Positions 16,384-59,527 of a stretch of 64,000 bases of DNA are shown here, piece by piece. The DNA is from an uncultured Gammaproteobacteria bacterium (GTDB taxonomy: Bacteria > Patescibacteriota > Patescibacteriia > SBBC01 > CAIJZX01). The translations under genes and the position numbers were made by a program. Location of the stretch: positions 28,841 to 92,840 of the forward strand of contig CAYGGC010000002.1 of NCBI GenBank assembly GCA_964349465.1, written 5' to 3'. Every line of letters starts with the position of its first letter. Position 1 is the stretch's first letter. The notes under the pieces are model-generated. The model saw only the letters and a program-made list of their open reading frames with translations. It did no database searches and was not told the origin of the DNA.

Positions 16384-17962
16384 AAATATTATGACCAGTC
16401 ATTTCGGGAGGAATCGGCAAACCGGCTAAGCCGAGTAACGTGGGCGCGACGTCGGCCAATACTCCAACCGGCGTTAACGATGAAAGATCGCGCATGGGCG
16501 CGCGAAAGCGTTCAACCAAAGATGCGGGCAGGTCGTCCGCGATAACAAATAATGGCACCGGGTTTGCGGAGTGTTCTTTTCCAACCGCGCCGGTCTGGCC
16601 ATCAATTTTATCTTCAGCGTTCCCGTGATCAGCCGTAATCATCACAAAACCATTCACCTCTAACGTTGCCTCAACAATTTGACCAATCAATGTGTCCACT
16701 GTTTCCACAGCTTTAATCGTCGCCGGAATGTTTCCAGTATGACCAATCATATCAGGGTTGGCAAAATTGACGACCATAAAGCTATAGGTACCGGTATTCA
16801 GTGCCGTGATCACTCGATCCGCCACCGCCCGCGCGCTCATCTCAGGTTTTTGATCATAGGATGCCAACGAAGGTGACGGCACCAAAATTCGTTCTTCACC
16901 AGGCCAGGCGCTTTCGACGCCACCGTTGAAAAAAAATGTGACGTGCGCATACTTCTCGGTTTCGGCGGCGTGCACCTGTTTTAAGCCAGCATCGCTAAAA
17001 ACTTTTGCTAATGGGGTAATGACTTTTTCAGGTGGAAAAGCGATCGTCACGGGTAAATCTTTTTCATATTCGGTCATCGTCACAAAAACCAAATTTTTCA
17101 GATACGCGCCCCGATCAAATTTCTCAAAACCAGGCAAGGTAAATGCTTTCGTTAATTCTCGGGCGCGATCGGAGCGATAATTAAAAAAGATGATGCTATC
17201 GCCGTCACCAACCGTACCAACTGGCTGCCCATCATGGACGATCACGGTCGGCACCATTTGTTCATCATACACACTCTTCGCGTAACTCGCCTCAATCGCC
17301 GCGATTGGGTCGGTCGCGGTTGGGCCGTCACCTTGAACCATCGCCGCATACACGGGAGCGATCCGATCCCAGTGATTATCACGATCCATAGCATAATATC
17401 GACCGCTAATCGTCGCGATCTCGCCGATACCAATCGTCACAATTTTTTTCTGTAATTTTGCGACCAGCGTCGCGCCGCTGTTGTACGGGCTATCGCGTCC
17501 ATCAAGAATAACGTGAATCACAACGCGCTTCACTTTAGACTTTTTACACAGTTCCAAAAGCGCGAATGCGTGTTCATCAAAACTATGTACCCCAGCCGCG
17601 CTAAACATACCGACGATGTGCAACGTGCTGGACGCGGTTTTCACATTCTCCAGCGCTTGCCCAAAGGCCGGATTCGTAAAAAACGACTTATCCATAATCG
17701 ACCGCGTAATCCGCGGCAAATCCTGGTAAATAACCTTACCCGCCCCAATCGTTAGGTGGCCAACTTCTGAGTTCCCCATTTCGCCCCATGGCAAACCAAC
17801 CGCATCCCCGGCCGCTTGCAACGTCATGGCCGGATATTGCTCAATGAGTCGATCGAGGACCGGCGTTTTCGCAAGAGCGATACAATTCCCCCGCGAGGGT
17901 GGTGCGACACCAAACCCATCGAGGATCAGTAATACCGCGGGATGACGTTTCGGCGTGGTCAT
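16367..17962 (-). CDS. gpmI: 2,3-bisphosphoglycerate-independent phosphoglycerate mutase (copy 1)
   Basis: LLILDGFG, MGNSEVGHLTIGAG and the C-terminal ITADHGN are all iPGM motifs. 531 aa. Confidence 0.85.
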   Translation of the reverse strand: MTTPKRHPAVLLILDGFGVAPPSRGNCIALAKTPVLDRLIEQYPAMTLQAAGDAVGLPWGEMGNSEVGHLTIGAGKVIYQDLPRITRSIMDKSFFTNPAFGQALENVKTASSTLHIVGMFSAAGVHSFDEHAFALLELCKKSKVKRVVIHVILDGRDSPYNSGATLVAKLQKKIVTIGIGEIATISGRYYAMDRDNHWDRIAPVYAAMVQGDGPTATDPIAAIEASYAKSVYDEQMVPTVIVHDGQPVGTVGDGDSIIFFNYRSDRARELTKAFTLPGFEKFDRGAYLKNLVFVTMTEYEKDLPVTIAFPPEKVITPLAKVFSDAGLKQVHAAETEKYAHVTFFFNGGVESAWPGEERILVPSPSLASYDQKPEMSARAVADRVITALNTGTYSFMVVNFANPDMIGHTGNIPATIKAVETVDTLIGQIVEATLEVNGFVMITADHGNAEDKIDGQTGAVGKEHSANPVPLFVIADDLPASLVERFRAPMRDLSSLTPVGVLADVAPTLLGLAGLPIPPEMTGHNIFENYV

Positions 17963-19503
17963 GCGAGCAAACTTTTTCCCGTCATATCAGCCGGTTGCGG
18001 CTGCCCCAGGATTGCCAAAACGGTCGGCGCGACATCGGCTAATCGACCGCCAGATCGGAGAGTCCGGGCCTTCACTGCTGGTCCCACGAGCCACAGCGGC
18101 ACCGGATTGGCCGAATGCTCAGTATCAACCTCACCGGTTTTGAGATTTTTCATCTCTTCCAAATTCCCATGATCACCAGTGACAACAAGCACGCCGTTGA
18201 CTGCCGTGACCGCCGCAGCGATACGCCCAAGCGCGGCATCGGTTGCCTCCATCGCCTGAATTCCAGCGGCTAAGTTGCCAGTATGAGCCACCATATCGGT
18301 ATTCGCAAAATTCATGACGATGACATCAAATTCTTTTTTTTCGATGGCGCCACACACCCGGTCGGTCAAGGCCACCGTACTCATGGCCGGAAGTTGGTCA
18401 TAGTATTTGACTGGCGGGGATGGAATCATTTCACGGTGTTCTCCGCCAACCGGATCCGGGTACCCACCGTTGAAGAAATACGTCACATGGGCGTACTTTT
18501 CGCTTTCGGCGATGTAGAGCTGTCGATGATTCCGTAACACCATCGGCAACGTATCGTTGATAGTCAAGGCTGGGAAGGCGCTCAGGAGGTCCCCTAAATC
18601 TGGACCAAAATCAGTCATCGTCACGAACAGCAGATCACGAATAACCCGAGATCGATGAAAAGCTTTCGTGGCCGCATTGGCCGTCTCAAAGTCCGGTTGA
18701 ACAAAGGCTTTCGAAATTTGACGGGCTCGGTCCGACCGAAGATTGAAAAAAATAATCGCGTCACCGTCATGCATCCCATCGTACCCATCAACAATTGTGG
18801 GCTTAATAAATTCATCGCTTTCGCCTCGGTTATACGCTTGCCCTACTGCGGCTAACGCATCATCGGCTTGGTGCTCCCCGCGACCTTGGGTAATGGCGTC
18901 GTACGCAAGCTGGGTTCGCTCCCATGTTTTATTCCGATCCATTCCGTAAAAACGACCCATCAATGTCGCGACGTGCGCATCACCAAAAAACGGAACCATC
19001 TTCGTTAACATTTCCCGCGCAAAAAATCGCGGTGAGTCGCGTCCATCGGTGAATAAATGCAGTTTCACGTCTTGGATTTTGTGATTTTGGACAAACATCA
19101 ATAGCGCCAATAAGTGATCTGGATCAGCATGAGCGCTTTCGTTGCTCCCAAGCATCCCCATAATATGCAGCCGCGACTGATGTTTACGAACGTGACGCAG
19201 CACCGCGAGAAAAGCTGGGTTCCGAAAAAAGGTACCGTTATTGATGGCGTTAGAAATTCGGACGCTTTCTTGCGGCACAACTCGACCGGCACCCAAGTTC
19301 ATGTGGCCAGCTTCCGAGTTTCCATCTTGCCCCGGATTTAATCCAACCTCAACACCGCTGGCGTAAAGCTCGGTCATCGGCCATTGGCCACGCCAGCTAT
19401 CGAGGACAGGCGTCTTCGCTTGAGTAATGGCGTTAGCGGGACTCGGCGGGGCAATTCCCCAGCCATCAAGCACCGCCAATACAACCGGACCAGGCTGGCT
19501 CAT
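17959..19503 (-). CDS. gpmI: 2,3-bisphosphoglycerate-independent phosphoglycerate mutase (copy 2, paralogue)
   Basis: VLAVLDGWG, GNSEAGHMNLGAG and VTGDHGN. 514 aa. The two copies have diverged but both look full-length. Confidence 0.85.
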   Translation of the reverse strand: MSQPGPVVLAVLDGWGIAPPSPANAITQAKTPVLDSWRGQWPMTELYASGVEVGLNPGQDGNSEAGHMNLGAGRVVPQESVRISNAINNGTFFRNPAFLAVLRHVRKHQSRLHIMGMLGSNESAHADPDHLLALLMFVQNHKIQDVKLHLFTDGRDSPRFFAREMLTKMVPFFGDAHVATLMGRFYGMDRNKTWERTQLAYDAITQGRGEHQADDALAAVGQAYNRGESDEFIKPTIVDGYDGMHDGDAIIFFNLRSDRARQISKAFVQPDFETANAATKAFHRSRVIRDLLFVTMTDFGPDLGDLLSAFPALTINDTLPMVLRNHRQLYIAESEKYAHVTYFFNGGYPDPVGGEHREMIPSPPVKYYDQLPAMSTVALTDRVCGAIEKKEFDVIVMNFANTDMVAHTGNLAAGIQAMEATDAALGRIAAAVTAVNGVLVVTGDHGNLEEMKNLKTGEVDTEHSANPVPLWLVGPAVKARTLRSGGRLADVAPTVLAILGQPQPADMTGKSLLA

Positions 19504-25369: not shown

Positions 25370-28192
25370 TTATGAACGAGGGCTAACCACGTGCGCAGCC
25401 GCTTGATGCGGATGTGCCTCGGGCGCGTCAGCATGCGGGACCAAGGGTAGAATAAATTGGAAGGTACTCCCCTTTCCTTCACCATCCGACTCGGCCCAAA
25501 TCCGCCCGCCGTGGGCGTCGATAATGGATTTCGCAATAAATAAACCAAGTCCCGATCCATCAGGATGGATTTGGGCGATCCCGCTCCCGCGCACAAACTT
25601 GTTAAACAACTCCGTCGCGTCCTGCGGCTTAATACCAATACCGGTGTCTTTCGCGCGGAAATGAATACGCTCGTCTTCCAGTTCGGCCGTGAGGGTGATT
25701 GAACCTTTATCGGTATATTTGATGGCGTTATCGATCAAATTAAGAATGACATCTTGAATTTTATCGGCGTCAACCATAACTTTCGGCAAGGGTGTTTTTG
25801 GAAGCTTATTGAGAATTTTCAAACCCTTATCGTTCGCCGCTTTCGTTACTTCCTTAATTTCACGCACCACTAAATCTTCAAACTGGACTGGCACTTTTGT
25901 ATATGTGAACTTGCCCGCCTCGATTTTTGAGACGTTTAAGAACTGGTTAATTAAGCGAATCATCCGCTGTGATTCAGCTAATAAATCGGTCAGAATTTTC
26001 AGGTGATCGGGTTTCATCTTCCCGAAATCTCCCTGGGTCATCATCGACAGATAGCCCATAATCCCGGTCATTGGCGTTCGGAGTTGATGGGACGCGATCG
26101 ACACAAATTCTGACTTCGCACGGTCGAGTTCTTGAAGATGCTTGTTCGCAACTTCGAGCTGTCCGTTCGTTTCCTTCAATTGCGAGAAAAGCGTTAAGTT
26201 CCGCGACACAATCCCGAGTTCGTCGGCCATCGATTGCATCGTCGCGATTTCTTGTGGGGTGATGTCGTGGATAGATTTTTGCAAACCGATCTCAATCACC
26301 CCGATGGTCCTTGATTCCGAAATGATCGGTACTAAAACCATCGATTTCAGGCCCATCAGTTTTTGGATACTCGCACATATAATTTTCGGCAGCGGCGGCG
26401 AGAGAACGTCGCTCATCGAGTCCGTGATTTTTATTTCTCCAGTGCGAATAACCTGATGCCCTAAAGAGTTAGAGGCCGGATCCATGATATCGCTGTGGTA
26501 CGTATCAAACCGCAACGGCAATAATCGCATCGCCTTCTTAGTCAGCGGTGTTTCGGTAATTGCGCGCGCCCGAACCGTCCGACCATCTTGGTCGAGGAAG
26601 ACTAGAATCGCGCCCAGATAGCCAAGCTCAGTTGCGACGCTATTGGCGATATTTTGGACGGCTTGGGAGAAATCGAGTGTTCGCGTGACTTCTTTGGTAA
26701 TATTTTGCAGGGTTTGCAACGAGACATTCCGATCTTCGAGCTTCTCGGTCGCTTCCTTTACTTTCACTTTCAAATTTTCACCAAACTCCCGAACTTCTTC
26801 GAAGAGGTTCGCCTTTTGAATCGCTGATCCAATTTGTGGCGACAGCACTTCAATCAAGTTCACGTCATCGTTGGAGAACGTATCCCCAGAGAGTTTAGAC
26901 CCGAGGACAAGTACGGCAATCAAGTGATCTTGCGCGTAGACCGGCGCAATTAAGGCCGCTCCAAGCTTTTCAAATTCTTCTTTCGACGCAAGCAACGGTC
27001 CGCGTAGCTCTTCTTTCGTATCGTCAATTTTCCGCTCAAGCGATTCATAAATGGCCGGATGACGGTGCTCGCGGAGATAATGCACGAGCTGACTCTCGTT
27101 TTGGAGCACCATGTTTGGGTATTTGCCCAAAAGTTCCGGCAAGGCCTCAAACCGATCCGTGCCGCCATGCGAAGTTCGGCGCAGGAGCGTCGCCGCAAAC
27201 TTGATTTTGAGCTCTTGGGTTAGGGTCGTCCGCAGATCGGTAATCAGTTTTGTCTGATCAAGTTCGAAACTGAGGGTTTCGGAAAGTTTGCGGAGAATCG
27301 CTTGATAATCAATCTTTGCCTTGAAAAAGACTTTGTCGGTTGCTCGTGAAAGAAGCCGCTTGAGTGGATCAAGGCCGAAGACGATGAGAGCGGCGACGAG
27401 GAAGGCTATTGAATTTTGACTAACTTGGCTCTTTTCAAAGAAACGCGCGGAGGTAAACGTAATAAAAACGAAAGAGAGTGTGACGAGGGTCAACAGCAAA
27501 CCATAGATTAATGAACGTGTGGCGACTAGACGGATATCTAGTAGCCTATGCCTTACAATTGCGTAACTAACTAATACAACGAGAAAAAGTGTGCCGAGCG
27601 GTCCAAGGGCAACCAGACTACCGATCCCGATTACCGGCAGTAAAATATTAGTAATAATGCCAAAAAGAGCGGTAATTGCGACTCCAGCAAAAACGTACCT
27701 TATCTGTTGCTTAACTAACCCCGAGGAGCTTAAATATTTTCTAATAAAACTGTAAATCGAAAAAATTATTCCTCCAAAGAAATATAGTAAGAAAAAATAG
27801 TACCCTGGCGCATAAGTTAACTTTGCAGGAAAGATTGTGTTATCTACAGATTCAACAAGGTATCCAAAAAAAATAGTTGGCAACAAAACAATAAATCCCA
27901 CTAAAAAAAATACCAATACTGGTTTTCTTGGGTTAACACCAAACGGGAAGAGATAGCTAAAAAAAAGTATAGATGGAATCATTAGTACCGGTCCAAGAAA
28001 AGTCATTTTTGCCCAAAAAAGCGACCTATTCGGATCAAAGTCAACCAAATAGTTAGCAATTGCCCAAATTGCCAAGGATATCGCGAGGGAGAAAAAAGAA
28101 ATATTTATTTTGGATTTGTGATTTCTGTTTAGAATTAAGAATCCTAAAAAAATAATTGAAGCCGAGACAAAAAGAACTGACAATAGGTACAT
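25370..28192 (-). CDS. Sensor histidine kinase with 7TM, GAF, GAF, HisKA and HATPase domains
   Basis: About 220 aa of multi-pass membrane domain, then two GAF-like regions, an H-box (FVSIASHQLRTPMTGIMGY), an N-box (LNLIDNAIKYT) and G-boxes (DTGIGI, GSGLGL). 940 aa. The 5' roughly 500 nt are strongly AT-rich. Confidence 0.8.
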   Translation of the reverse strand: MYLLSVLFVSASIIFLGFLILNRNHKSKINISFFSLAISLAIWAIANYLVDFDPNRSLFWAKMTFLGPVLMIPSILFFSYLFPFGVNPRKPVLVFFLVGFIVLLPTIFFGYLVESVDNTIFPAKLTYAPGYYFFLLYFFGGIIFSIYSFIRKYLSSSGLVKQQIRYVFAGVAITALFGIITNILLPVIGIGSLVALGPLGTLFLVVLVSYAIVRHRLLDIRLVATRSLIYGLLLTLVTLSFVFITFTSARFFEKSQVSQNSIAFLVAALIVFGLDPLKRLLSRATDKVFFKAKIDYQAILRKLSETLSFELDQTKLITDLRTTLTQELKIKFAATLLRRTSHGGTDRFEALPELLGKYPNMVLQNESQLVHYLREHRHPAIYESLERKIDDTKEELRGPLLASKEEFEKLGAALIAPVYAQDHLIAVLVLGSKLSGDTFSNDDVNLIEVLSPQIGSAIQKANLFEEVREFGENLKVKVKEATEKLEDRNVSLQTLQNITKEVTRTLDFSQAVQNIANSVATELGYLGAILVFLDQDGRTVRARAITETPLTKKAMRLLPLRFDTYHSDIMDPASNSLGHQVIRTGEIKITDSMSDVLSPPLPKIICASIQKLMGLKSMVLVPIISESRTIGVIEIGLQKSIHDITPQEIATMQSMADELGIVSRNLTLFSQLKETNGQLEVANKHLQELDRAKSEFVSIASHQLRTPMTGIMGYLSMMTQGDFGKMKPDHLKILTDLLAESQRMIRLINQFLNVSKIEAGKFTYTKVPVQFEDLVVREIKEVTKAANDKGLKILNKLPKTPLPKVMVDADKIQDVILNLIDNAIKYTDKGSITLTAELEDERIHFRAKDTGIGIKPQDATELFNKFVRGSGIAQIHPDGSGLGLFIAKSIIDAHGGRIWAESDGEGKGSTFQFILPLVPHADAPEAHPHQAAAHVVSPRS

Positions 28193-28505: not shown

Positions 28506-29213
28506 TTAATGCAAAGAATACCTATAATCTTTCCCATGAGGAGAAAGGGAGCCATTAGATAAAAATTTTAATAGTGATCTATTTTTTTCGTACATCTTTT
28601 CTTCAAACTCATTAACATGGATTACATAAGGAGCTGTAATGCCTTGAAATATTTTGGATTTCCCAATGCGTGTAATTGGGATATTAAACTCTTCGAGGTT
28701 CGGTGTTAGCTTATCATCTAAGACGCAGAAAATATTGTTTAAGTGTCTTTCTTTTACCAGCAAATAAATGCCCTTAATTAATACTAGAAGTAGGTGTTTT
28801 CTTCGATAATTTCTTGCGACTATTAATCTAGAAATTTCTGCGACCTGATTTACATCAACTGGTTGAAGACGATAATCAATTTCGAAATTTCTGAGTATGG
28901 GCAATCCATCATCTGAACCGAGAATAAGCCTAGCTGTTGCAGCGAGATCTCCTGAATTATGTCTTACTACAAGATGAATGGAGTGACGATCAAAAATATC
29001 TTGTTCTCTTTTATTTGGGTAATCTCTGTAGTCTAAGTATCTATATTCTTCACAGTAAACTTTGTAACGAATTCTATAAATTTCTTCTAACTCGTCATGC
29101 TCTGAAGTTGTGTAGAAAGTAAAATTTTTATAGACACTTCTTTCTGCTAATCTTAAATTTATCCCCCCAAAGAAAGGACTCTTTACCAATGCTTTCAAAA
29201 AAATGGAGGGCAT
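28506..29213 (-). CDS. GNAT-fold N-acyltransferase of the autoinducer-synthase/N-acyl-amino-acid-synthase/OlsB superfamily
   Basis: RIRYKVYCEEYRYLDYRDYPNKREQDIFDRHSIHLVV matches the LuxI/FeeM block R..VF..E..W.....E.D.FD..S.HLVV. ATARLILGSDDGLPI...AEISRLIV matches the E.SRL.V block. The start at 29213 overlaps the upstream stop as TAATG. Confidence 0.6.
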   Translation of the reverse strand: MPSIFLKALVKSPFFGGINLRLAERSVYKNFTFYTTSEHDELEEIYRIRYKVYCEEYRYLDYRDYPNKREQDIFDRHSIHLVVRHNSGDLAATARLILGSDDGLPILRNFEIDYRLQPVDVNQVAEISRLIVARNYRRKHLLLVLIKGIYLLVKERHLNNIFCVLDDKLTPNLEEFNIPITRIGKSKIFQGITAPYVIHVNEFEEKMYEKNRSLLKFLSNGSLSPHGKDYRYSLH

Positions 29214-29890
29214 TATTTTTTCAAAACAATATAAGTTGTAGTGGCAAACCAAATCACTGAACTAAGAACGCCATAAAGGAAATTTGGAACAAAGTCGGGG
29301 GAAAAAATAGGCCAAATCAGATCGATAAATACCGCGGGCAATCCACCGATGATCACAGACAAAAGGACTAAAAAAACATTTTTGCCGTTTAACCCATCGT
29401 TTCTTTTTGATTGCTTGAATAGCAGTCCTACTGCTAATAAGTAGAGAGAGAGTAAAAGCACATTGTAAAAAGGGAGTAGAGGTCCTGCGACTACCCTCCC
29501 TACGTTTGTTGTAGAGGCAACATAATCCAACTCTATAGTTCGTGTTGTAAGAGCGATTATTGAAAATAGTGCTGCGGGCAAATACATCAATGTTCTATGA
29601 AGTCTATCCAAATGAACTAGCGGAAGTGGAAATACAATGGCCAAATGGACTAGTGACGTAAGTAAAAAAATTCCAAAAACATACACAAAGGAATTGATTA
29701 TGAGAGATGCTTCTAGGCTGTAGGCCAACAAGCCGCTGAAAATCACCCACAACCCCGTACTCAAAGCCAACAACGCCATCACCTTCCGAATTTCACTCTT
29801 CGAGTGCGTCACCCAAAAGAAAATTGCGAGGATTAACTCCCCAATCCCAACAAGGTAGGTGGCTGTAAGTAAAAAGGTTTTCATTTCCAT
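29213..29890 (-). CDS. Stand-alone 7TM membrane protein, paralogue P1 of the kinase sensor domain
   Basis: 225 aa with seven predicted TM helices. It shares MK...ATYLxGxGE..L..FFW.T, FPLP, GGLP and a terminal YIVLKK with P2 and P3. Confidence 0.6.
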   Translation of the reverse strand: MEMKTFLLTATYLVGIGELILAIFFWVTHSKSEIRKVMALLALSTGLWVIFSGLLAYSLEASLIINSFVYVFGIFLLTSLVHLAIVFPLPLVHLDRLHRTLMYLPAALFSIIALTTRTIELDYVASTTNVGRVVAGPLLPFYNVLLLSLYLLAVGLLFKQSKRNDGLNGKNVFLVLLSVIIGGLPAVFIDLIWPIFSPDFVPNFLYGVLSSVIWFATTTYIVLKK

Positions 29891-29891
29891 A

Positions 29892-30566
29892 TTATTTCTT
29901 CAACACAATATAGGAAGTTACGCCAAGCCATACAAGTGTCGCTGAGGTGCCGTACAGAGGATCTTTAGCATACCCCGTAAACAAAGGAATGATCAGGTCA
30001 TTAATGACTCCCGGAAGACCCCCTAGGACAAAGGACAAAGCCACTGGCAGAAGGGTGTGACGATATGTGACATCAGCTTTTCTCAATCGGTATAACAATA
30101 TTCCAATAGCCAGTGTATACAGTGCGATAAGGTATATATTGTAATACTGGAAGAGCGGACCGCCGTGCCAGGCGCCCTGAAATGTTGAGGAGGAAACGTA
30201 ATAATTGAGGACAGTATTCGTTCCAAAAATCTCGAAAGAAAAAATAATGGCCGGGATAAAGAGCAGAAAAATATGAAAGCGATCTATACGAATTATTGGT
30301 AATGGAAAAAGGAGAGAAAAAAGCAAAACGGCGGTTACCATGAAAACTCCAAAGGCGTATGTCAGTCGAGGTAATAGGTTTTGCGCCGTAGCATTTTCAG
30401 TATACGCAGCGCCAACGGTTGAGAGTACCCATGCGCCTGTTACGATCGCAAGGAAACCAAGTATCTTTCGAATAATTTGGTTTCCATTCGTTTTCCAAAA
30501 AAACAATCCGAGGAGAACTTCTCCTAGTCCAATCAGATACGTTGCAATGATTGCGAGTTCTTTCAT
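29892..30566 (-). CDS. Stand-alone 7TM membrane protein, paralogue P2
   Basis: Start MKELAIIATYLIGLGE. It ends SYIVLKK. Its ATG overlaps the P3 stop as ATGA. Confidence 0.6.
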   Translation of the reverse strand: MKELAIIATYLIGLGEVLLGLFFWKTNGNQIIRKILGFLAIVTGAWVLSTVGAAYTENATAQNLLPRLTYAFGVFMVTAVLLFSLLFPLPIIRIDRFHIFLLFIPAIIFSFEIFGTNTVLNYYVSSSTFQGAWHGGPLFQYYNIYLIALYTLAIGILLYRLRKADVTYRHTLLPVALSFVLGGLPGVINDLIIPLFTGYAKDPLYGTSATLVWLGVTSYIVLKK

Positions 30567-31222
30567 TTCTTCACCAAAATATATCCGGTCAAGCACAGCC
30601 AAACCGAGGTAAACAACGATCCAATAAAACCGTATTTCGTGGCCGCATTCAACGGCAAGGCGATATCAAACACCGCCGAAACCACAAGCGAGACCACGAT
30701 ACCGATCGTCACCAGCTGGGTATTTCGACGATGCAACCCGTCGGCCCGCCGCCAGGCGCGCACCAAGTTCACCAACGACCACAGCCAATACAGCCCGAAA
30801 ACGACGATCAGGAGCCAGAACAACTCGCCGGTTGCTGTCGCGTACCCAGGGCCGAAGGCAACAATACTTGAACGAGCGACAAAAATATCGGTCAGCAGGA
30901 GCCCTGGAATGAAGATCGCCGCTGGCCACAGTACCCAGGGAACGAGCTCATGATTTCCCCTCGTCGGTAGAGGGAAGGAAAAGCTAAAGGGTAAGAACAG
31001 CACCGCAGTCATCAATCCCCCGGTCCAAGCCAAGTGCTCGGCGGTGTCGCCACTGATCCACTGTCCAAGATACCCAAGCCCGTTCGCCCCCACATATAGG
31101 GCAACCGCGAAGCAAAACAAGCCATACCACATGGTCGCCTGGTTTTTCTGGTATTTCGTTAGGAACCAAAAGCCCAGCCAAACTTCAGCCAGGGCGATCA
31201 CGATTAACAGCCAGCCAATCAT
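30563..31222 (-). CDS. Stand-alone 7TM membrane protein, paralogue P3 (GC-normal copy)
   Basis: 219 aa. Contains FSFPLP and ends GYILVKK. Its GC is about 55%, unlike P1, P2 and the acyltransferase. Confidence 0.6.
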   Translation of the reverse strand: MIGWLLIVIALAEVWLGFWFLTKYQKNQATMWYGLFCFAVALYVGANGLGYLGQWISGDTAEHLAWTGGLMTAVLFLPFSFSFPLPTRGNHELVPWVLWPAAIFIPGLLLTDIFVARSSIVAFGPGYATATGELFWLLIVVFGLYWLWSLVNLVRAWRRADGLHRRNTQLVTIGIVVSLVVSAVFDIALPLNAATKYGFIGSLFTSVWLCLTGYILVKK

Positions 31223-48904: not shown

Positions 48905-51424
48905 TTATCGTGACGCTTCCGCTGTTGGCACTGACGCAACGGTCGCCGGTGAACCAAGTTGTGTTCGTTCAAGAATCTCGGCTTCAACAATGCGCCGTTC
49001 TTTGCCGTAGCGTAATCGTGAATATTGCTTGATCGCCTCGGCCATTGTTGAGCTCCCTTTGAGTGGTGGGTAGGTTTGCATATGGAACGGGGTCGCCGCC
49101 GTATTATTAATCAACAAGCGCACATAGGCAGTGTATTGTTCTTGATTGACGAGATCAAAAGCCGAGAAGGTTGGGGCAAACTGACGTTCCAGAATTTCCG
49201 CGTCTTCGACACCAATCCGGAACGCCGCGACGGTTCCGACGTTGCCGAGCACCGCATCGCGTACTTTTGTATCACCACCGGACGACAGTTGACCCATATA
49301 TTGATGGGCCATGGTTAAGTTTAATTTGTATTTACGCGCTTCGGAGAGAATGACCGCGATTGAGTCGGTAATGAAATTTTGGAATTCATCAATATACAGG
49401 AAGAAGTCACTCCGCTCGGCTTCCGGGATGTCCGCGCGTGATAACGCCGCCATCTGGAGTTTCGACACGATAATCAAGCCCAACAGTGCGGAGTTCACTT
49501 CACCAATTTTTCCTTTCGAAAGATTCACGAGGAGGATTTTTTTCTTATCCATGATGTCTCGCAGGTTGAATCCGGATTTCGGCTGGCCAATAATATTGCG
49601 CATCTGAGCATTCTCGACAAATCGTCCGACTTTCGAGATCAGGTAGCCCAGCATTTCCGATTTATGGAAGTCGCTGGTCTTCGCCATTTCTTTCTCCCAG
49701 AAGGCGCGGACCACTGGGTCGGTGACCTTGCTAACCTTATACTGCTGAAAGGCCTTGTCGGTAAACATCCGCGGAATATCAGCGATCGTCCCGGGGAATT
49801 CTTCATCGGCCATCAACGTCAGCATCGCATTACGCATGTTATGCTCGAACATCGGACCAATCATCTCCGGCGGGAACAGCTTCATAAAAATCGCGATCAT
49901 TTCCTGCACCGCCATATCGCGCTCATCCGGTGTTCGCGCCTCCAACATATTCAGTCCGAGTGGCCGCTCAAAATCTGATGGATCAAAAATTACCACGTCG
50001 TGCATTCGTTCTTGCGGCACTCCAGCCAAAACATCTTCCACTAGACCGCCGTGCGGATCAACGACGCACACGCCGTGGCCGGCCTGGATGTCTTGAATCG
50101 CCATGTTGCTCATCAACACCGATTTACCAGATCCGGTCGTCCCGACGATGTAGACATGGCGACGGCGATCAACGGTTTTGAGTCGCACTACGGTATCACT
50201 CCCACGATACTGGTTATGCCCGAGGATGACGCCTTCCGTCGGCATCTGCACCGGCGCCGAACTTTTTTTCGCGCTCAGCCATTGAATATTTGGCGTTTCA
50301 GTTTGGGCCAAGGGAAAATGATAAACCGAATTAATTTCCTCGCTATTGAGGATCATCGCGTGGGCGTTGTCGAAATGACGATAGATAAAATCATAGACAA
50401 GTTCACCACCACGAGCGACGTGGCCGCGCTTAAACTGGTTACCGGATTCGGGCGCTTGGAACTGACTGAAGGCGTTGACGATATTTTCTAAGTGGACACT
50501 AGCGTTCGCCTCGAGGGGTGATGAGGTGACGATCCGGATGTTTGTGTCGAAGCCCGGCTTGCCGGACTTTTCTTCGAGACCACGAATGAGCTCCTGCTCC
50601 ATCGGCGTGATGTTTGGCAAACCACGATATTGCCGCTCTTTCGCTTGCCCGGTTTTGAAAACACTCCCAATCGATAAACCAGTTCCCGAAATCGCCTGAT
50701 TAATTTTATCGCCCTCTTGCATTTTGTGGGCAATCTCGCGCCCACGTCGTTGCCACCCGTTCGCCTTCGGGCGGATCAGCACCTGGATCGCCGCGCCTTC
50801 GCCCGGCTGGACTTTACTGAGGACGTTCGTTAACGCGTTGAGCGGATCAGTGTCAAGCCGTTTATAGGAGCGAATCGGGAAAAAGAATTGTTTCGTCAAT
50901 TTCAACATCGTGCCGCGAATGTGCGATTGCGGCGTGAATAAATTGTAATCCTCAACCTCTTCGATTTGGGCTTGCGGATATTGCGCTTGAATTTGTAATT
51001 CAACAAGTTGCTGATTCGATCGCGGTACGGCAATGTAAAAATGGATCTGGCCGCTATGGGCGACGATCTCAAAAGCCAGGTGGTCATGATGTCCAAACCA
51101 AAACTTCTGCCAAGCCGCGCGGGCTCCGCCGGCGGAAAACTTGATTCCACCTAACGTCACAAACAACGTTTCAAACGCCGCCAAGGTTTCACGCCAATCT
51201 CGCTGACCCTGTGCAGCTGCCATCGATTCTTTCGGGAGCAACACCTGCAGGACCGTGTACATCAACGCGCGCGGAACTTTATTCTTCCGGTGAAACTGTC
51301 GGCGGAGGGCCCAAACGACGAGAGTCACTAGTCCGGCAAGAATAATCCCGATCAGCGCCCACCCAAGCGGACCATTCGTGAACAGGGCGGAATCATCCGC
51401 AGAAAAAATTGAGACTTGGAGCAT
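48905..51424 (-). CDS. Membrane-anchored P-loop ATPase of the VirD4/TraD/TraG (type IV coupling protein) family, with a roughly 400-aa N-terminal extension
   Basis: Walker A is GTTGSGKS, followed by VVDPHGG, which resembles the T4CP DPKG motif. Walker B is FLYIDEFQNF. The C-terminus has EARKYKLNLTMAHQYMGQL, typical of the TraG-D_C region. An N-terminal TM helix is present. Confidence 0.6.
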   Translation of the reverse strand: MLQVSIFSADDSALFTNGPLGWALIGIILAGLVTLVVWALRRQFHRKNKVPRALMYTVLQVLLPKESMAAAQGQRDWRETLAAFETLFVTLGGIKFSAGGARAAWQKFWFGHHDHLAFEIVAHSGQIHFYIAVPRSNQQLVELQIQAQYPQAQIEEVEDYNLFTPQSHIRGTMLKLTKQFFFPIRSYKRLDTDPLNALTNVLSKVQPGEGAAIQVLIRPKANGWQRRGREIAHKMQEGDKINQAISGTGLSIGSVFKTGQAKERQYRGLPNITPMEQELIRGLEEKSGKPGFDTNIRIVTSSPLEANASVHLENIVNAFSQFQAPESGNQFKRGHVARGGELVYDFIYRHFDNAHAMILNSEEINSVYHFPLAQTETPNIQWLSAKKSSAPVQMPTEGVILGHNQYRGSDTVVRLKTVDRRRHVYIVGTTGSGKSVLMSNMAIQDIQAGHGVCVVDPHGGLVEDVLAGVPQERMHDVVIFDPSDFERPLGLNMLEARTPDERDMAVQEMIAIFMKLFPPEMIGPMFEHNMRNAMLTLMADEEFPGTIADIPRMFTDKAFQQYKVSKVTDPVVRAFWEKEMAKTSDFHKSEMLGYLISKVGRFVENAQMRNIIGQPKSGFNLRDIMDKKKILLVNLSKGKIGEVNSALLGLIIVSKLQMAALSRADIPEAERSDFFLYIDEFQNFITDSIAVILSEARKYKLNLTMAHQYMGQLSSGGDTKVRDAVLGNVGTVAAFRIGVEDAEILERQFAPTFSAFDLVNQEQYTAYVRLLINNTAATPFHMQTYPPLKGSSTMAEAIKQYSRLRYGKERRIVEAEILERTQLGSPATVASVPTAEASR

Positions 51425-51429: not shown

Positions 51430-51897
51430 CTATTGGCGCGTTTTGAGCGCGATGATTTTATCGGTTTTAATTTTGGCTTCCTGTTCGAAAAAAAACACGT
51501 TCATTCCAGGAATAATTCGTAACCACGCGACCAGGAGTTCAACGATTTTCTTGGCCTGACTTTTTCCGGACTGCAGGAGTTGAGAAATTTTTCCAGCCGT
51601 TATTTCACCACTGGTTTTAAACTTGGCTTGGGTTGCTGGATCCATCTGCGCATAGGCGTCAGCGAGCCCGTCAGACATCACATCCTCGACTTGGCGCTGA
51701 AGCGGTGTTCCGGTTGGTTGCAGTGGCACGGGGCCGTCAATCGGTGCTGGCAACGGTTGAATAACCGGCATCACCGTTTCCGGTCGTTCACCGCGATGAT
51801 CAATGGTCGTCTGTGGAGCGTGTTCCGGGGAAAGCGTTTCCGCTGTTTCGGGCAAGCTCCGCGATAAGTCAGGATTGAGTATCGGGAGTTCAGGCAT
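51430..51897 (-). CDS. Hypothetical protein, 155 aa. Probably a leaderless mRNA.
   Basis: The ATG at 51897 is 6 nt downstream of an extended -10 element (TGGTATAAT). The track ORF's N-terminal 24 aa fall inside the promoter. Confidence 0.4.
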   Translation of the reverse strand: MPELPILNPDLSRSLPETAETLSPEHAPQTTIDHRGERPETVMPVIQPLPAPIDGPVPLQPTGTPLQRQVEDVMSDGLADAYAQMDPATQAKFKTSGEITAGKISQLLQSGKSQAKKIVELLVAWLRIIPGMNVFFFEQEAKIKTDKIIALKTRQ

Positions 51898-51903
51898 AAA
51901 AAA

Positions 51904-51931
51904 ATTATACCATTTTACTCTGAACACGTCA
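51904..51931 (-). promoter_or_regulatory. Promoter with an extended -10 element for the 51430..51897 gene
   Basis: On the minus strand, TGACGT, a 16-nt spacer ending in TGG, then TATAAT. This is followed by TTTTTT and then the ATG. Confidence 0.5.
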
Positions 51932-51940
51932 CGGCGGCTC

Positions 51941-51969
51941 TTGACAAAATGGGAATTGTATGGTAGCAT
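51941..51969 (+). promoter_or_regulatory. Divergent promoter for the GC-rich lipoprotein pair
   Basis: TTGACA, a 17-nt spacer, then tgg-TAGCAT. It lies about 80 nt before the ATG at 52050, which has AGGAGG 7 nt upstream. Confidence 0.5.
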
Positions 51970-52049: not shown

Positions 52050-52493
52050 ATGAACCGGATTGTTCGTTTCACTTTCATGATGCTGATGTGCTTCGTCACC
52101 TCCGCGATCGTTGCTGGCTGCAAATGGCCAACCGGTCCGGAAATCGCCGATGCGATCAGTCCGCCCCCGGCTGAACGCTGGTACGACGGCGCCGTCTTCT
52201 ACGGCGGCTCGATCTCGTTCGAAGTCCGGATCCATCCGGACTACACCGACCCCAAACATCGGGACTACGCCAACTGGGTGTTGCTCGACGCGACGCCCAG
52301 CGGCCAGTTCAGTTCGGCCGCGTACTACCTGCACGCTCGGGCCTACAAGCTCGAGTTCCGTAACGCGAACACGAAGGCACTTGTTCGGACCGTGATCGTC
52401 ACGCCGAACAACGAAGAGAACGAGCGGGTGTACGAATACCTGTCTCAGCTCGACTGGCTGTACGACTACAACGCCAAACGCGTCGCGCCCTAA
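52050..52493 (+). CDS. Lipoprotein, 147 aa
   Basis: MNRIVRFTFMMLMCFVTSAIVAGC with an IVAGC lipobox. Strong SD. About 62% GC. Confidence 0.6.
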   Translation: MNRIVRFTFMMLMCFVTSAIVAGCKWPTGPEIADAISPPPAERWYDGAVFYGGSISFEVRIHPDYTDPKHRDYANWVLLDATPSGQFSSAAYYLHARAYKLEFRNANTKALVRTVIVTPNNEENERVYEYLSQLDWLYDYNAKRVAP

Positions 52494-52512: not shown

Positions 52513-53016
52513 ATGCGTACCATGCTGAAGCTCTCGTTCGCGCTCATCGCGACCATCCTCATCACTGGTTGTGCCCCGGGACAGTTTCTCCGGATGCCGC
52601 CGCCGAACGTGACCGTCGATGCTAACGGGAATGTCCAGACGTACATCCCGAACGCGACGCACGCGATGGCCCGAGCGGTTCGTGGGATGAATGGTCCGAT
52701 TCTGTACGAACGGACCCGCGACGGTGGCAACGAGCTGTCGGACGGCTGGATCGAATTCCAGTCCGACCAGTCAACGGCCACGTTTGTGCTCGACCCGCAA
52801 GGCGACGTCGCCTCCGCGTACGTCAAGTACAAGAGCGGCGTCGTCGTCCGTCGCCTGCGTGCCCCGAACTGGACGTTCAAACTTCCGAACGCCTACAACT
52901 CGGGCACACGCGACTACGAACTGTACGTCCGTCGCGAGGACGAGTCGGAAGAGCTGCTCATGACCATCACGGTCGTCAGCAGCCCGCCGGCCTCGCTACG
53001 CAGTCGTCGACGCTAG
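52513..53016 (+). CDS. Lipoprotein, 167 aa
   Basis: MRTMLKLSFALIATILITGC with an ITGC lipobox. SD is AAAGGAG. About 62% GC. Confidence 0.6.
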   Translation: MRTMLKLSFALIATILITGCAPGQFLRMPPPNVTVDANGNVQTYIPNATHAMARAVRGMNGPILYERTRDGGNELSDGWIEFQSDQSTATFVLDPQGDVASAYVKYKSGVVVRRLRAPNWTFKLPNAYNSGTRDYELYVRREDESEELLMTITVVSSPPASLRSRRR

Positions 53017-53040
53017 CCCAAGACGCATCATGTTTCACCG

Positions 53041-53074
53041 GCGAGGTTCCCCCAAACCTCGCCGTTTCTTTTTA
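53041..53074 (+). terminator. Intrinsic terminator after the lipoprotein pair
   Basis: GCGAGGTT-cccccaa-ACCTCGC is followed by CGTTTCTTTTTA. Confidence 0.6.
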
Positions 53075-53085: not shown

Positions 53086-53114
53086 TTGACAAGAGACAAA
53101 AAATGTGCTAAAAT
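53086..53114 (+). promoter_or_regulatory. Near-consensus promoter
   Basis: TTGACA, a 17-nt spacer, then TAAAAT. The A-rich, SD-less leader (about 40 nt) runs to the ATG at 53157. Confidence 0.55.
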
Positions 53115-53156: not shown

Positions 53157-53843
53157 ATGGCTTACACAGAACTCCACACGGCGGCTCTTCGGTTGGTGCA
53201 CGTCAATCGCCCATCCGACCGTGACATGGATTATCTCACCCGCGAATTTCATCTGACCCCGACGGATACCGAGGCAATTCTTGGCGTCGCCGAACAAAAT
53301 TCTATCTCGCAAACAGACGCCTATCGCCGCCTCACGATCCAATGGCCAATGCCCACGCGACGCGGCATCGTTCTGACGGACGTACATTGCCTGGTCGGAT
53401 CCGGCTGGGTCGCCGTGATTGACCACGGAAACTTCCCGGCCGCGCAGGAACTTATCCAAGAATTGCAAAACGTTCCGGCCGAACGACTTTGGCAAGACGG
53501 TCCGATGATGATGCTGTATGAACTCTGGCGTCGAGCGATTCGCGACTTACAAAACTTTGACCACGCCCTCGGATCCGCTCAACTGTTATCGTTTGTCCGA
53601 ACACGAACGGCCGTCGGCGAAACCCTAAAACATTTCGCTGAAAGCTCGCCTTCTACCTCTGATCACGACGATGTTGTACGTGGTTTTTCCTTTCTCGCGT
53701 TCACGTTGAGTCACGTTAATCCGGCTGGCGCACGCGCTCCGGTTATGGCCACCTCAAAATTACCAATCACGGTTCGCGGTTACGCGGCAGTTTCGACCGC
53801 CGTCGCTGTGCTCACGCTGATCGTTATCAGTCGAACACTGTAA
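53157..53843 (+). CDS. Hypothetical protein with a C-terminal TM helix, 228 aa
   Basis: ORF lying behind the consensus promoter. The C-terminus YAAVSTAVAVLTLIVISRTL is hydrophobic. No recognised domain. Confidence 0.5.
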   Translation: MAYTELHTAALRLVHVNRPSDRDMDYLTREFHLTPTDTEAILGVAEQNSISQTDAYRRLTIQWPMPTRRGIVLTDVHCLVGSGWVAVIDHGNFPAAQELIQELQNVPAERLWQDGPMMMLYELWRRAIRDLQNFDHALGSAQLLSFVRTRTAVGETLKHFAESSPSTSDHDDVVRGFSFLAFTLSHVNPAGARAPVMATSKLPITVRGYAAVSTAVAVLTLIVISRTL

Positions 53844-53850: not shown

Positions 53851-53991
53851 ATGAAGCGCCCGGTCGCTATCGCCACACAAACCACCACCAGTCGCGCCGT
53901 CCGGGTGTCGGTCGCCTTTGTGATTATTACCGCGGCGATCACCAGCCTGATTGGCGTCGTCGCTATCATCAGTCGCCTGCTCTCAAAATAA
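53851..53991 (+). CDS. Possible small membrane protein, 46 aa
   Basis: [49 protein letters not shown]. It fills the gap between two genes and its stop lies 4 nt before the next ATG. Confidence 0.3.
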
Positions 53992-53995: not shown

Positions 53996-55009
53996 ATGTT
54001 CGAGCTCATCGACAATCTCGCGACTCCCGGCGGCCTCATCGCTCTGCTCGCCTTCGGAGGATTGTTTATGTATTTTGGCATCGTCCTCCTCAAGGAAAAT
54101 ACGAAAGAAAAAATCCGCGGTTCGATTTTGTCCCTCTACTCACAAGACCTGACCCAACTTGCCCGGATGGGTAAACTCGATCCGGTCATCGGACGTGATC
54201 ACGAAATTGAACGCGTCATTCAAATTCTCTCTCGCCGCACAAAAAATAATGCGGTCCTCGTCGGCGATTCCGGCGTCGGTAAAACGGCGATCGTCGAAGG
54301 TCTGGCTGGAAAGATTGCGGCCGGCACCGTCCCCGATCCGATCAAGCACAAGCGAATTCTGTCGCTCGACTTATCAGGTCTCGTCGCCGGCACAAAGTAT
54401 CGCGGCGAATTTGAAAAGCGGTTGAAAACAATTCTGGATGAAGTCATCGCCTCGCAACGTCAAATTATTTTATTTATCGATGAGCTTCACACCCTCGCCC
54501 AAGCCGGCGAAGCCACCGGCGCCATCGACGCTGCCGATATTCTGAAACCCGCCCTCGCCCGTGGCCAGCTCCAAGCCATCGGCGCGACGACCAAGAAAGA
54601 GTATGAAGGGTACATCCTAAAAGACATCACGCTCGAACGTCGATTCCAACCAGTCCTCGTGAACGAGCCAACACCGGCCGAAACCTTAACCATCATCGAG
54701 GGCTTACGCACCAACTACGAACGTCATCACAAAGTTCGTATCAGCGATGAAGCACTCGCCGCCTCGGTAACGCTCGCCGGCCAACTCCTCCCCGACCGCC
54801 ACTTCCCGGATAAAGCCATTGACGCCATGGATGAAGCGGCCGCAAAAGTTCGCCTCGGATCGATTCGCCATCATGACGATAAAACCGATTTCCCGATTGT
54901 CACCGCAGATGATGTAAAAGTTGTACTGGAAGAATGGGCGAAAGATCTCGAGTGCTTTCGACAAGATCATACAACCAAAGGTCGACCTTCCTTGCCAGCC
55001 GACGCGTGA
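53996..55009 (+). CDS. Membrane-anchored AAA+ protein consisting only of a ClpB/ClpC-type D1 module. Truncated relative to canonical Clp/Hsp100.
   Basis: A TM helix ([21 protein letters not shown]) replaces the Clp N-domain. The canonical D1 blocks are all present: [84 protein letters not shown] and [17 protein letters not shown]. The ORF stops where D2 would begin. No D2 follows. Confidence 0.65.
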
Positions 55010-55171: not shown

Positions 55172-55375
55172 ATGGAAAATAACGCCGTTATGCCATCCGT
55201 CCTCAAGATGGATGAGCCAACAACGACCCCAGCTCCTTCAGAACCAACTCCAGCCCTCAAAAAGAAAGACCATTGGCTGGTTGAAGTCGTCGGTGGCGTC
55301 ACTGTCGCCGGTACGATGTTGTCCGCTCTTTCGATGTGGTATTTGATGCTCACCTACGTCATCCTGCCGTCATAG
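55172..55375 (+). CDS. Possible small tail-anchored protein, 67 aa
   Basis: MENNAVMPSV...HWLVEVVGGVTVAGTMLSALSMWYLMLTYVILPS, with an A-rich leader. Weak support. Confidence 0.3.
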   Translation: MENNAVMPSVLKMDEPTTTPAPSEPTPALKKKDHWLVEVVGGVTVAGTMLSALSMWYLMLTYVILPS

Positions 55376-55461
55376 TCGACGAATCAATCATCACGTCCCT
55401 CCCCTATGGCCTCCAGTCATGGGGGTTTTCTTTTCCCGCAAAAACCGATAGACTGCTGAGT

Positions 55462-57946: not shown

Positions 57947-58654
57947 TTATTTAACCGAGATTGATCGCGCTTCGAGCGTGTTCGTGGTCGCATTCCAGCG
58001 GCCGATCACTTTTCCGTGATCGCCATTCATGACCACTCCGAGTGAAATAACCCCGACCTGCTTCTTGGTAATAACCGTCTGGGCATCAACCGTCACATTC
58101 GTCATTTTCCCTAAGCCGCTTGGTCGACGTGTTACGGTAAACGAGTTTGTTCCGGCATTCACATTCTGAAAGAATCCTTTCACTTCGACAAGACGAATGG
58201 CCTTATCTTCAATTTTTAACGCGACGCCGTTTGTGCGTGATGTCGCCCGGACCGTCACGCGGTCGCCGACCTGAATGTCGCTCACGCGAGCGCGGCGGCT
58301 GTGCTTCCCGATCACAATCGTCGACTCATTGATTGCAAGAGTTGTTACGACCGGCGTTACGACGCTGTTCGTATTTCCGTTACTATTTCCATTCGTATTG
58401 CTGTTGTCGTCGGAATTCGTATTGCCATTCTGATTACCATTGTGGTTATCTTCGACGCGTGGGGCGCCAGTAACCGTTATGGATGTGGCTGAGACTGCTG
58501 TAACGACCCCACGAACCCGAACCGTCTGGACTGCGACCGAACGATGCGATTCGCGTTCGAACTGACCTTGACCATCTTTAGCTAAACCAACCAGCGGCAT
58601 GGCAACTAAACTGGCAACGACGCCAGCTATTACTATCCCTTTGCTCATTTTCAT
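57947..58654 (-). CDS. Secreted protein with an Asn/Gly/Thr-rich low-complexity repeat
   Basis: Signal peptide MKMSKGIVIAGVVASLVAMPLVGLA. NGNQNGNTNSDDNSNTNGNSNGNTNS repeat. Shares the VTAVSATSITV block with the next gene. Confidence 0.5.
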   Translation of the reverse strand: MKMSKGIVIAGVVASLVAMPLVGLAKDGQGQFERESHRSVAVQTVRVRGVVTAVSATSITVTGAPRVEDNHNGNQNGNTNSDDNSNTNGNSNGNTNSVVTPVVTTLAINESTIVIGKHSRRARVSDIQVGDRVTVRATSRTNGVALKIEDKAIRLVEVKGFFQNVNAGTNSFTVTRRPSGLGKMTNVTVDAQTVITKKQVGVISLGVVMNGDHGKVIGRWNATTNTLEARSISVK

Positions 58655-58765: not shown

Positions 58766-59527
58766 TTACTGTGTGATGGTAACTTTGCTAGCCAAGAAAT
58801 ACTTGCCAACGCTGTTCCAACTACCGCGCACCGTTACCTTCTTTTCGGCGTTCATGGCCGCGGTCAGGTCATCGAACGTGGCGGCGGTCACCGGCTCGGT
58901 CCCGAACCAGTAGGTCGTGCCTTCATGGGTTTTTACCAGGGCCGAAACGGTCTTGGTCAACCCGCTTTCCGTTTGCTTTTGTCGCAGGACCAGTTTAAAG
59001 GTCTTGGCGGTCGTGTTCACGTCGGTAATGGTGCCCTTGATTTGCCCCCACCAGATCGACTTGTCCCAGATGAGCTTGGCGATACCTCCTTCAAACTTCG
59101 TGCCCCAAACCTTCACGGTATCACCAACGGCAACTTCGGTAATCGAAGCAGTGCCCTTGAATTTTCGAAGAACCTTCGTCGTCGCGTCAACACCAAAGGT
59201 GTATGAAGTCGTGACGATCGCGTCGTCCGATGAGGTGTTCGTGTTTTCTGTTTGAGCGCTGACTTCAGCCTTTTTACTTCGAACGGCGACCGTAATCGAA
59301 GTCGCGCTGACGGCGGTCACTTTGCCGTTGGCGTAGACCATCGTCTTATTTTCTTCGAGTCGCTTGAACATTCCAATCCCATTGCGATCGCCTTTACCAT
59401 CCAAGGCAGATTCTTCGCCATGGAGGAATTTTGGCAAACCCTTCGACGAGGTTTTCGCTTCGGCCGACGGCCCGAGAAGCATGGTGACGATCGCGATCAG
59501 CGGGAGAACTAAGAATGCTTTTCTCAT
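58766..59527 (-). CDS. Secreted protein, paralogue of the 57947..58654 gene
   Basis: Signal peptide MRKAFLVLPLIAIVTMLLGPSAEA. Contains the shared VTAVSATSITV block. Confidence 0.5.
   Translation of the reverse strand: MRKAFLVLPLIAIVTMLLGPSAEAKTSSKGLPKFLHGEESALDGKGDRNGIGMFKRLEENKTMVYANGKVTAVSATSITVAVRSKKAEVSAQTENTNTSSDDAIVTTSYTFGVDATTKVLRKFKGTASITEVAVGDTVKVWGTKFEGGIAKLIWDKSIWWGQIKGTITDVNTTAKTFKLVLRQKQTESGLTKTVSALVKTHEGTTYWFGTEPVTAATFDDLTAAMNAEKKVTVRGSWNSVGKYFLASKVTITQ

Follow-up and report, generated by a model that had tools for sequence, protein, structure and literature searches.

The Clp/Hsp100 proteins of the ClpA, ClpB and ClpC type consist of two stacked ATPase rings, D1 and D2; how much each ring contributes is still under debate, and most work on this point has used engineered truncations. 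The loop through which ClpA and ClpC dock to ClpP sits in D2. Among membrane-anchored AAA+ enzymes, FtsH is described as the only known protease family (PMC8943139), and Msp1 extracts membrane proteins from bilayers (PMC12793716). Here we describe a gene, named TM-D1, that resembles both groups. It lies in a 64-kb stretch of patescibacterial DNA, referred to below as the window, and encodes a single Hsp100-type D1 module behind one transmembrane (TM) helix. A free-standing D1 on the membrane, as an earlier note on this DNA had described it, is a correct reading of the protein and a family-wide trait. Judged from sequence conservation, TM-D1 is a functional gene of a large, so far uncharacterised family, all of it built to this architecture.

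A D1 module behind a membrane anchor

The TM-D1 open reading frame (ORF) starts with ATG at 53996, ends with the TGA stop at 55007-55009 and codes for 337 residues. The identical 337-residue protein is found on a contig of another assembly, where it was called separately. The gene and its parts are:

53996..55009, + strand: TM-D1 gene, membrane-anchored, free-standing Hsp100 D1 AAA+ module
54029..54091, + strand: transmembrane helix, residues 12-32 (hydropathy; AlphaFold2 helix 11-41; positive-inside rule)
54122..54673, + strand: D1 large (alpha/beta) subdomain, residues 43-226 (PDB and NCBIfam matches, alignment, Foldseek)
54263-54286, + strand: Walker A, G90-DSGVGKT97 (direct sequence reading)
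54395-54406, + strand: pore loop, K134-Y-R-G137 (direct sequence reading)
54464-54484, + strand: Walker B, D162-E163 (direct sequence reading)
54638-54643, + strand: Arg fingers, R215-R216 (direct sequence reading)
54674..54943, + strand: D1 small (lid) subdomain, residues 227-316 (Pfam AAA_lid_9; TIGR02639 match to residue 316; alignment)
54944..55006, + strand: C-terminal tail D-L-x-C-F ... K-G-R-[TP], residues 317-337 (clade-specific)

The fold of TM-D1 is that of an Hsp100 D1. In a phmmer search of the PDB, residues 43-288 align with residues 151-395 of T. thermophilus ClpB (E 7.5e-90). All 45 PDB matches (E <= 0.001) are ClpB, ClpC, ClpA, ClpE or Hsp104/101, with no FtsH, Msp1 or ATAD1 chain among them. 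Pfam identifies AAA (PF00004, 47.2 bits against a cutoff of 21.2) and AAA_lid_9 (PF17871, 77.9 bits, cutoff 22.8). The NCBIfam model of ClpA (TIGR02639) matches residues 35-316 with its positions 158-434 and so covers all of D1, as far as the final strand and helix of its small domain. The AlphaFold2 monomer model, built from 35 homologues with a mean predicted local distance difference test score (pLDDT) of 84, consists of a long helix (residues 11-41) followed by the D1 fold. Foldseek superposes it on the D1 protomers of ClpC, ClpC1 and ClpB, all from substrate-bound hexamers, to within ~2-3 Å over ~270 residues.

Over the whole D1 (residues 43-288) the protein is ~60-65% identical to ClpA, ClpC and ClpB (E 1e-90 against ClpB and ClpC structures) and shares their Walker A and B motifs, KYRGEFE pore loop, sensor-1, paired Arg fingers and PDKAID lid motif. 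Sensor-1 reads as T199 and the lid motif as residues 271-276, and the D1 landmarks claimed in the earlier note are thus all present by sequence reading, phmmer, NCBIfam and Pfam. The lid carries PDKAID...DEAAAKVRL plus a closing element in a ClpA-like arrangement, closing as in ClpA with no M-domain: only ~12 residues separate DEAAAKVRL from the closing element, and the alignment with the ClpA model is contiguous through residue 316.

Unlike ClpA, ClpC and ClpB, TM-D1 has no D2, Clp_N, M-domain or ClpP-binding loop, and it forms a separate clade. The Pfam scan of the protein gives no Clp_N (PF02861), AAA_2, ClpB_D2-small or Peptidase_M41. Residues 1-42, where Clp_N would be, hold the TM helix and a 12-residue linker, in agreement with the earlier statement that a single helix stands in place of the N-domain. 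No Lys or Arg precedes the helix, and four occur within the 12 residues that follow it. There is a single Walker A, and the chain ends 21 residues past the D1 lid. The ORF had been said to end exactly where D2 should start; the protein indeed contains no D2, but 20 residues follow ...EEWAKD before the stop. The C-terminal tail occupies the position where a D1-D2 linker would begin. The ClpP-docking tripeptide [LIV]-G-[FL] is absent from the window protein and occurs by chance in 35/241 family members. TM-D1 also falls below every NCBIfam equivalog cutoff, with 381 vs 1232 bits for ClpB (TIGR03346), 332 vs 993 bits for ClpA (TIGR02639) and 342 vs 885 bits for ClpV/TssH (TIGR03345). In sequence and fold the ATPase is a Clp/Hsp100 D1 domain, yet the protein as a whole lacks the features that define class I Clp/Hsp100 proteins. 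Because ClpP-binding features are absent, it is misleading to annotate TM-D1 as 'ATP-dependent Clp protease ATP-binding subunit'.

In its layout the protein resembles the membrane-anchored enzymes. Like FtsH, it starts with a membrane anchor, and after a short linker comes one AAA+ domain, predicted to form a ring with its entry pore turned to the membrane. FtsH is the sole bacterial example named for quality control by a membrane-anchored AAA+ protein (PMC8943139). It differs from FtsH in having no M41 metalloprotease and no periplasmic domain, one TM helix rather than two, and a Clp D1-type ATPase. With Msp1 and its relative ATAD1 it shares the combination of a lone TM helix at the N-terminus with a single AAA+ domain and no protease. 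This is a functional analogy only: Msp1 and ATAD1 are eukaryotic and belong to another AAA subfamily, and nothing suggests common descent of the architecture. The anchor, the linker and the single AAA+ domain of such a design are seen directly in TM-D1, and its invariant Arg fingers together with Clp structures suggest a putative hexamer and its orientation. By this analogy TM-D1 would work most like a protease-less FtsH or Msp1, while being a member of neither family.

The TM-D1 family

At least 240 distinct homologues, 272-367 residues long, have the same architecture as TM-D1. The best 120 database matches are 59-88% identical to it and measure 301-367 residues, none being longer; in 119 of them the C-terminus lies shortly after one common W-containing motif. 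A profile of more distant members retrieves ~116 further proteins of a sister subfamily (272-352 residues). A comparison with orthologues, as proposed in the earlier note, therefore yields no full-length Clp protein. A hydrophobic 19-mer ahead of D1 is present in 119/120 of the best homologues and in 104/120 of the more distant set. The few family members that appear to lack the TM helix are start-codon miscalls; at L093, a start 30 codons earlier, at an in-frame ATG, brings back MYQYIPLVVILLVLPLLWYFY. The linker between the helix and the Y-S-x-D-L-T start of D1 has a median of 16 residues (range 10-25), and across 223 sequences the mean number of Lys plus Arg is 0.08 before the helix vs 2.82 in the 12 residues after it.

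The Walker A Lys and Thr, the Walker B Asp-Glu pair, the KYRG pore loop, the sensor-1 Thr and both Arg fingers are invariant in 241/241 sequences. Orthologue pairs give dN/dS (the ratio of nonsynonymous to synonymous substitution rates) of ~0.10-0.21, with dS saturated, and ratios of this size point to purifying selection on TM-D1. We consider it highly probable that the proteins form a family of active membrane-bound ATPases.

Within the searches made, the family is found solely in Patescibacteria, the Candidate Phyla Radiation (CPR). Named sources are Candidatus Kerfeldbacteria, Candidatus Buchananbacteria and 'Patescibacteria group bacterium', and the NCBI taxonomy places the first two within the Parcubacteria group of Patescibacteria. 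Members of the Kerfeldbacteria-type clade keep the C-terminal tail, which the Buchananbacteria-type subfamily lacks. Several members occur on contigs of 0.3-0.98 Mb and are therefore chromosomal. A search of representatives at 50% identity contains no separate representative of the family, but does contain distant TM-D1 proteins (P0153, P0155, P0175 and P0247). IMG/VR has no member, its matches being two-ring Clp proteins at <= 57% identity. PADLOC returns generic AAA matches and no defence-system membership for TM-D1, the curated NCBIfam and Pfam models include none for the family beyond the domain level, and full-text literature searches gave no account of a membrane-anchored D1-only Clp protein.

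The place of the family among Clp proteins was assessed with a distance-based neighbour-joining tree of D1 (254 D1 columns, 200 bootstraps). All TM-D1 proteins, the most distant ones included, form one clade in 144/200 bootstraps. The clade is located among ClpC/ClpA-like sequences, and 198/200 bootstraps separate it from the full-length ClpB that other CPR lineages have. This makes a recent origin of TM-D1 by truncation of a CPR clpB look unlikely. The family may have arisen by ancient loss of D2 or may be a pre-fusion relic, and both origins fit this simple tree.

Proposed motor and gene neighbourhood

From these features we consider it moderately probable that TM-D1 is a hexameric, membrane-tethered polypeptide-threading motor with its entry face toward the membrane. 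An N-out/C-in signal-anchor helix and a linker of ~10-25 residues would hold D1 on the cytoplasmic side of the bilayer, where the positive-inside rule predicts it and where it would have the ATP that it needs. Six copies would assemble into a single ATP-driven ring, and a ring is suggested by the invariant Arg fingers, which make sense only in such an assembly. D1 drives hexamerisation in ClpA and bacterial ClpB. The six anchors would hold the TM-D1 ring together in part. That anchors can aid assembly is suggested by the FtsH-like proteases Yme1 and AFG3L2, in which a hexameric coiled coil had to replace the TM domains to keep the hexamers (PMC7226402). The TM-D1 anchor would leave the N-terminal, substrate-entry face of D1, and the pore entrance would then face the membrane. 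In ClpA, ClpB and ClpC the chain enters D1 on this face, so that six anchors would hold the entry side to the bilayer. The KYRG pore loops would take hold of a membrane protein by a tail or loop on its cytoplasmic side and draw the chain through the ring toward the cytoplasm. The design would be that of the FtsH ATPase ring or of Msp1/ATAD1, made from a Clp D1 module and with no protease of its own. Since protease, ClpP loop, N-domain and M-domain are all missing, the choice of substrate must come from the membrane context or from operon partners.

Hexamer formation, topology, threading direction and substrate identity are put forward here as proposals. The earlier note had raised a membrane-protein unfoldase as one possibility; of its suggestions this is the best supported, by the invariant catalytic, pore and Arg-finger residues and by the anchor geometry, and we infer it on those grounds. 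The likely clients or partners would be the small bitopic membrane proteins of the same predicted transcription unit, the elements of which are:

53039..53064, + strand: strong terminator-like hairpin with a 10-bp stem followed by TTTCTTTTT; ends the lipoprotein genes before it and bounds the unit on its upstream side
53086..53114, + strand: sigma-70-like promoter TTGACA-17-TAAAAT with extended -10 TG, 11/12 matches (consensus match, 43 nt upstream of the CorA-like gene)
53157..53843, + strand: CorA-like protein, 228 residues, one C-terminal TM, no GMN motif; first gene of the unit
53851..53991, + strand: 46-residue single-pass membrane micro-protein, stop 4 nt before the TM-D1 start
55172..55375, + strand: 67-residue micro-protein, hydrophobic C-terminal segment; last gene of the unit, 162 nt after TM-D1
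55401..55435, + strand: terminator-like hairpin, 10-bp stem plus T-run, between the 67-residue micro-protein gene and cysS (start 55462)

By pattern matches, the genes for the CorA-like protein, the 46-residue protein, TM-D1 and the 67-residue protein are predicted to form one promoter-to-terminator unit. The ORF at 55172-55375, which had been called a promoter-less small ORF, is instead a conserved membrane micro-protein gene inside this predicted unit. Among the relatives, an equivalent of the upstream terminator precedes the CorA-like gene in L002 and L006, the promoter has counterparts at the matching position in L002 (TTGACT-17-TACAAT) and L006, and a 15-bp stem stands at the place of the downstream terminator in L006. 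No downstream terminator was detected in L002 or L007. Rfam reports no significant structured RNA in the gap between TM-D1 and the gene of the 67-residue protein.

The CorA-like protein of the window gives a weak match to the cytoplasmic domain of Pfam CorA (E 1.5e-4, under the curated cutoff), and the syntenic gene is a clear CorA-family member in L005 (E 1.8e-37) and L006. The GMN motif is lost in these full-length relatives (L005 8871-9800, L006 8775-9701), where 'TFGLGARSTP' (L005) and 'IFAINAKDTP' are read. With no GMN, and with 228 residues and a single TM helix in the window lineage, the protein is unlikely, on its sequence, to be an ordinary Mg2+ channel. The gene of the 46-residue micro-protein is called in L001-L003 and L005-L007, with none called at that position in L004, and its product has the motif [KR]-[IV]-S-[VL]-[GA]-F in common across loci. 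Homologues of the 67-residue protein (54-71 residues, motif DHW-[LF]-V-E-V-V-GG-x-T-[VL]-A) follow TM-D1 in L001, L002, L003, L004, L006 and L007, and none is called in L005. Both micro-proteins are kept across loci whose TM-D1 proteins are 59-74% identical.

The other subfamilies have different neighbours. In the Buchananbacteria type, dnaE is followed by TM-D1 and then by a ~370-residue protein with a short basic cytoplasmic N-terminus, one TM helix, a large external domain and no known domain (L039 6966-8111, L088 10949-12058, L093 3836-4630; L088 and L039 are 41% identical). Its gene always comes directly after TM-D1, the start overlapping the TM-D1 stop or lying within ~20 nt of it. Around P0247 (L092) the order is lgt, TM-D1 and a 610-residue bitopic protein. 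The common denominator of these contexts is an adjacent bitopic membrane protein that is probably co-translated with TM-D1. We note that the anchor motif of the 46-residue micro-protein resembles the N-terminal anchor R-N-I-S-F-T-F of the ~370-residue partner, the segments compared being short.

Several points weigh against the threading motor and its proposed partners. Kerfeldbacteria-type genomes are syntenic over >20 kb (dnaX ... TraG-like ... TM-D1 unit ... cysS, dus ... dnaJ), and gene adjacency is for this reason weak evidence of a functional link. The partner proteins of the different subfamilies have no detectable homology, and there is no universal partner. The upstream terminator and promoter were not found in L007, so that the signals are not in every relative. 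Finally, the main motor of two-ring Hsp100 proteins is usually D2, so that D1 by itself may translocate weakly.

The surrounding DNA has further features. An 839-residue TraG/VirD4-like coupling-type ATPase (48905-51424, - strand; DUF8128 in relatives) and a 179-residue protein beside it (51430-51969, - strand) are transcribed divergently from the TM-D1 region; the pair occurs in 5/6 relatives, the 179-residue gene being missing in L005, and a T4SS_pilin gene lies near the TraG-like region in L007. Two small proteins (52050-52493 and 52513-53016, + strand) have signal-peptide and lipobox-like N-termini (...VAGC and ...ITGC) and no family match; the pair ends at the terminator at 53039-53064, and similar pairs are found in L002 and L004. 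Adjacent DUF5666-containing proteins (57947-58654 and 58766-59527, - strand), one with an Asn/Gly/Ser-rich repeat region, are kept in relatives at the equivalent position downstream of dus. Farther away, a low-GC stretch (28506-31222, - strand; 0.36 vs ~0.52 elsewhere) encodes a FeeM/GNAT-like N-acyl amino acid synthase and then three tandem HisKA_7TM membrane modules, which are stand-alone (219-236 residues) and have no kinase domain. A 940-residue 7TM-GAF-GAF histidine kinase (25370-28192, - strand) adjoins this stretch. Tandem paralogues of cofactor-independent phosphoglycerate mutase (iPGM; 16367-17962 and 17959-19503, - strand) overlap stop to start.

Alternatives and significance

Of the alternatives, the one that survives best is a role other than threading, which we regard as improbable: TM-D1 would be a tether, adaptor or regulator that co-assembles with or recruits a Clp/Hsp100 ring or FtsH, or an ATP switch acting on the CorA-like protein. 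The D1 rings of some two-ring AAA+ proteins serve mainly assembly and regulation, mixed rings are conceivable at ~60% identity to the D1 of ClpB and ClpC, and the Kerfeldbacteria-type gene always follows a CorA-like gene that lacks the GMN ion-selectivity motif. Such a role, however, leaves the invariance of the substrate-gripping KYRG loop in 241/241 sequences hard to explain. The M-domain and N-domain, the known contacts with DnaK, MecA and ClpS, are absent, and the CorA-like neighbour is missing in other subfamilies.

A slightly less probable alternative is that TM-D1 is a dedicated motor for the assembly or export of envelope components, either the adjacent bitopic proteins with their large extracellular domains or the TraG/VirD4-like system. 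Instead of serving general quality control, it would insert, extract or recycle these components at the symbiont surface. This would be a narrower version of the threading motor, and sequence data cannot separate the two. In every subfamily examined, a bitopic gene overlaps TM-D1 or lies within <=25 nt of it (L039, L088, L093, L092 and the window micro-proteins); the partners, however, are not homologous across subfamilies. A gene for a TraG-like ATPase is conserved close to the unit, with a T4SS pilin gene in addition in L007, but the TraG-like gene is divergently transcribed and part of the long syntenic block. PADLOC and Pfam give nothing specific, and we know of no secretion system that uses a Clp D1-type ring.

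We consider it quite unlikely that TM-D1 is one half of a split Hsp100, in which a D2 protein (or D2 with a ClpP loop) encoded elsewhere would stack under the membrane D1 ring in a two-tier machine. The tail begins precisely at the point at which a D1-D2 linker would start and might serve for docking, and other CPR lineages do encode ClpB-type D2 domains; against this, the tail is missing from the Buchananbacteria-type subfamily, and the family is an old separate clade rather than a recent fission product. Split genes are normally adjacent, yet no D2 gene was found near TM-D1. The searches for one covered the loci described here, which leaves some room for a distant partner. When E. coli ClpB D2, ClpP and the ClpB N-domain were used as tblastn queries against the 64-kb window and L001-L007, with ~10 kb on either side in six relatives, none of the three was detected; the matches were weak P-loop similarities to dnaX and to the D1 of TM-D1. 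The absence of a frameshifted D2 remnant downstream, stated in the earlier note, is thereby borne out for the window, and no in-frame D2 lies there either. Eleven loci with gene tables, representing four context types, have no neighbouring AAA_2 or ClpB_D2-small gene and no ClpP gene, the ORF list of L039 contains no D2 gene near TM-D1, and in three further context types the genes adjoining TM-D1 are not AAA+. As for a canonical ClpB or ClpC in genomes that carry TM-D1, a scan of genome contigs gave, among the matches listed, mostly ClpB and ClpC of other phyla plus one member of the TM-D1 family; a profile of seven CPR ClpB D2 domains matched mostly Parcubacteria fragments, none tied to TM-D1-bearing contigs.

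Two Parcubacteria 'D2-only' proteins, P0341 and P0327, were considered as partners and rejected, being pieces of broken full-length clpB genes of other lineages. At L090/L091 (4368-7011) a gene for an N-domain plus D1 is called directly upstream of the D2 piece, and at L089 (6001-7008) the D2 piece is preceded by a 1.8-kb stretch with no called gene; L090 and L091 hold many other split genes. TM-D1 loci are unlike these, since a broken clpB has a D1 piece or an uncalled gap before its D2 piece.

Finally, that TM-D1 is a decayed or truncated clpB or clpC (the 'clean pseudogene remnant' of the earlier note, or a sequencing or frameshift artefact) is refuted: its ORF does end near the D1/D2 boundary, databases hold many truncated Clp fragments such as the frame-shifted P0159, and broken clpB genes do occur (L089 and L090), but at least 240 homologues share the same ends and family-wide lengths, an independent assembly has the identical protein, members lie on 0.3-0.98 Mb contigs from many samples, dN/dS is 0.1-0.2 with all catalytic residues invariant, tblastn finds no downstream D2 remnant, and the N-terminal TM helix is a gain rather than a loss.

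Returning to the membrane-tethered threading motor, a general extractase or quality-control role is a tentative extension of it. Equally speculative is the wider suggestion that TM-D1 is an independently evolved bacterial membrane-protein extractase, a functional counterpart of Msp1 and the FtsH motor, serving as a CPR envelope machine with operon-encoded bitopic partners. Such a machine would carry out envelope quality control or remodelling in episymbiotic ultra-small bacteria. If this is true, it might replace canonical ClpB or ClpC in some lineages, and it would show for the first time, from a natural example, that the D1 ring of an Hsp100 protein can translocate on its own.

For the question of what each Clp ring contributes, the family offers hundreds of natural sequences of a D1 ring that has long stood alone, anchored in the membrane, and has kept all of its motor residues. 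Should TM-D1 prove to be an active translocase, it would give mechanistic studies a minimal D1 motor optimised by nature and would be a second kind of membrane-anchored AAA+ machine in bacteria besides FtsH. It would also point to an unexplored pathway by which CPR bacteria handle membrane proteins; the episymbiotic life of these bacteria rests on the biology of their envelope.

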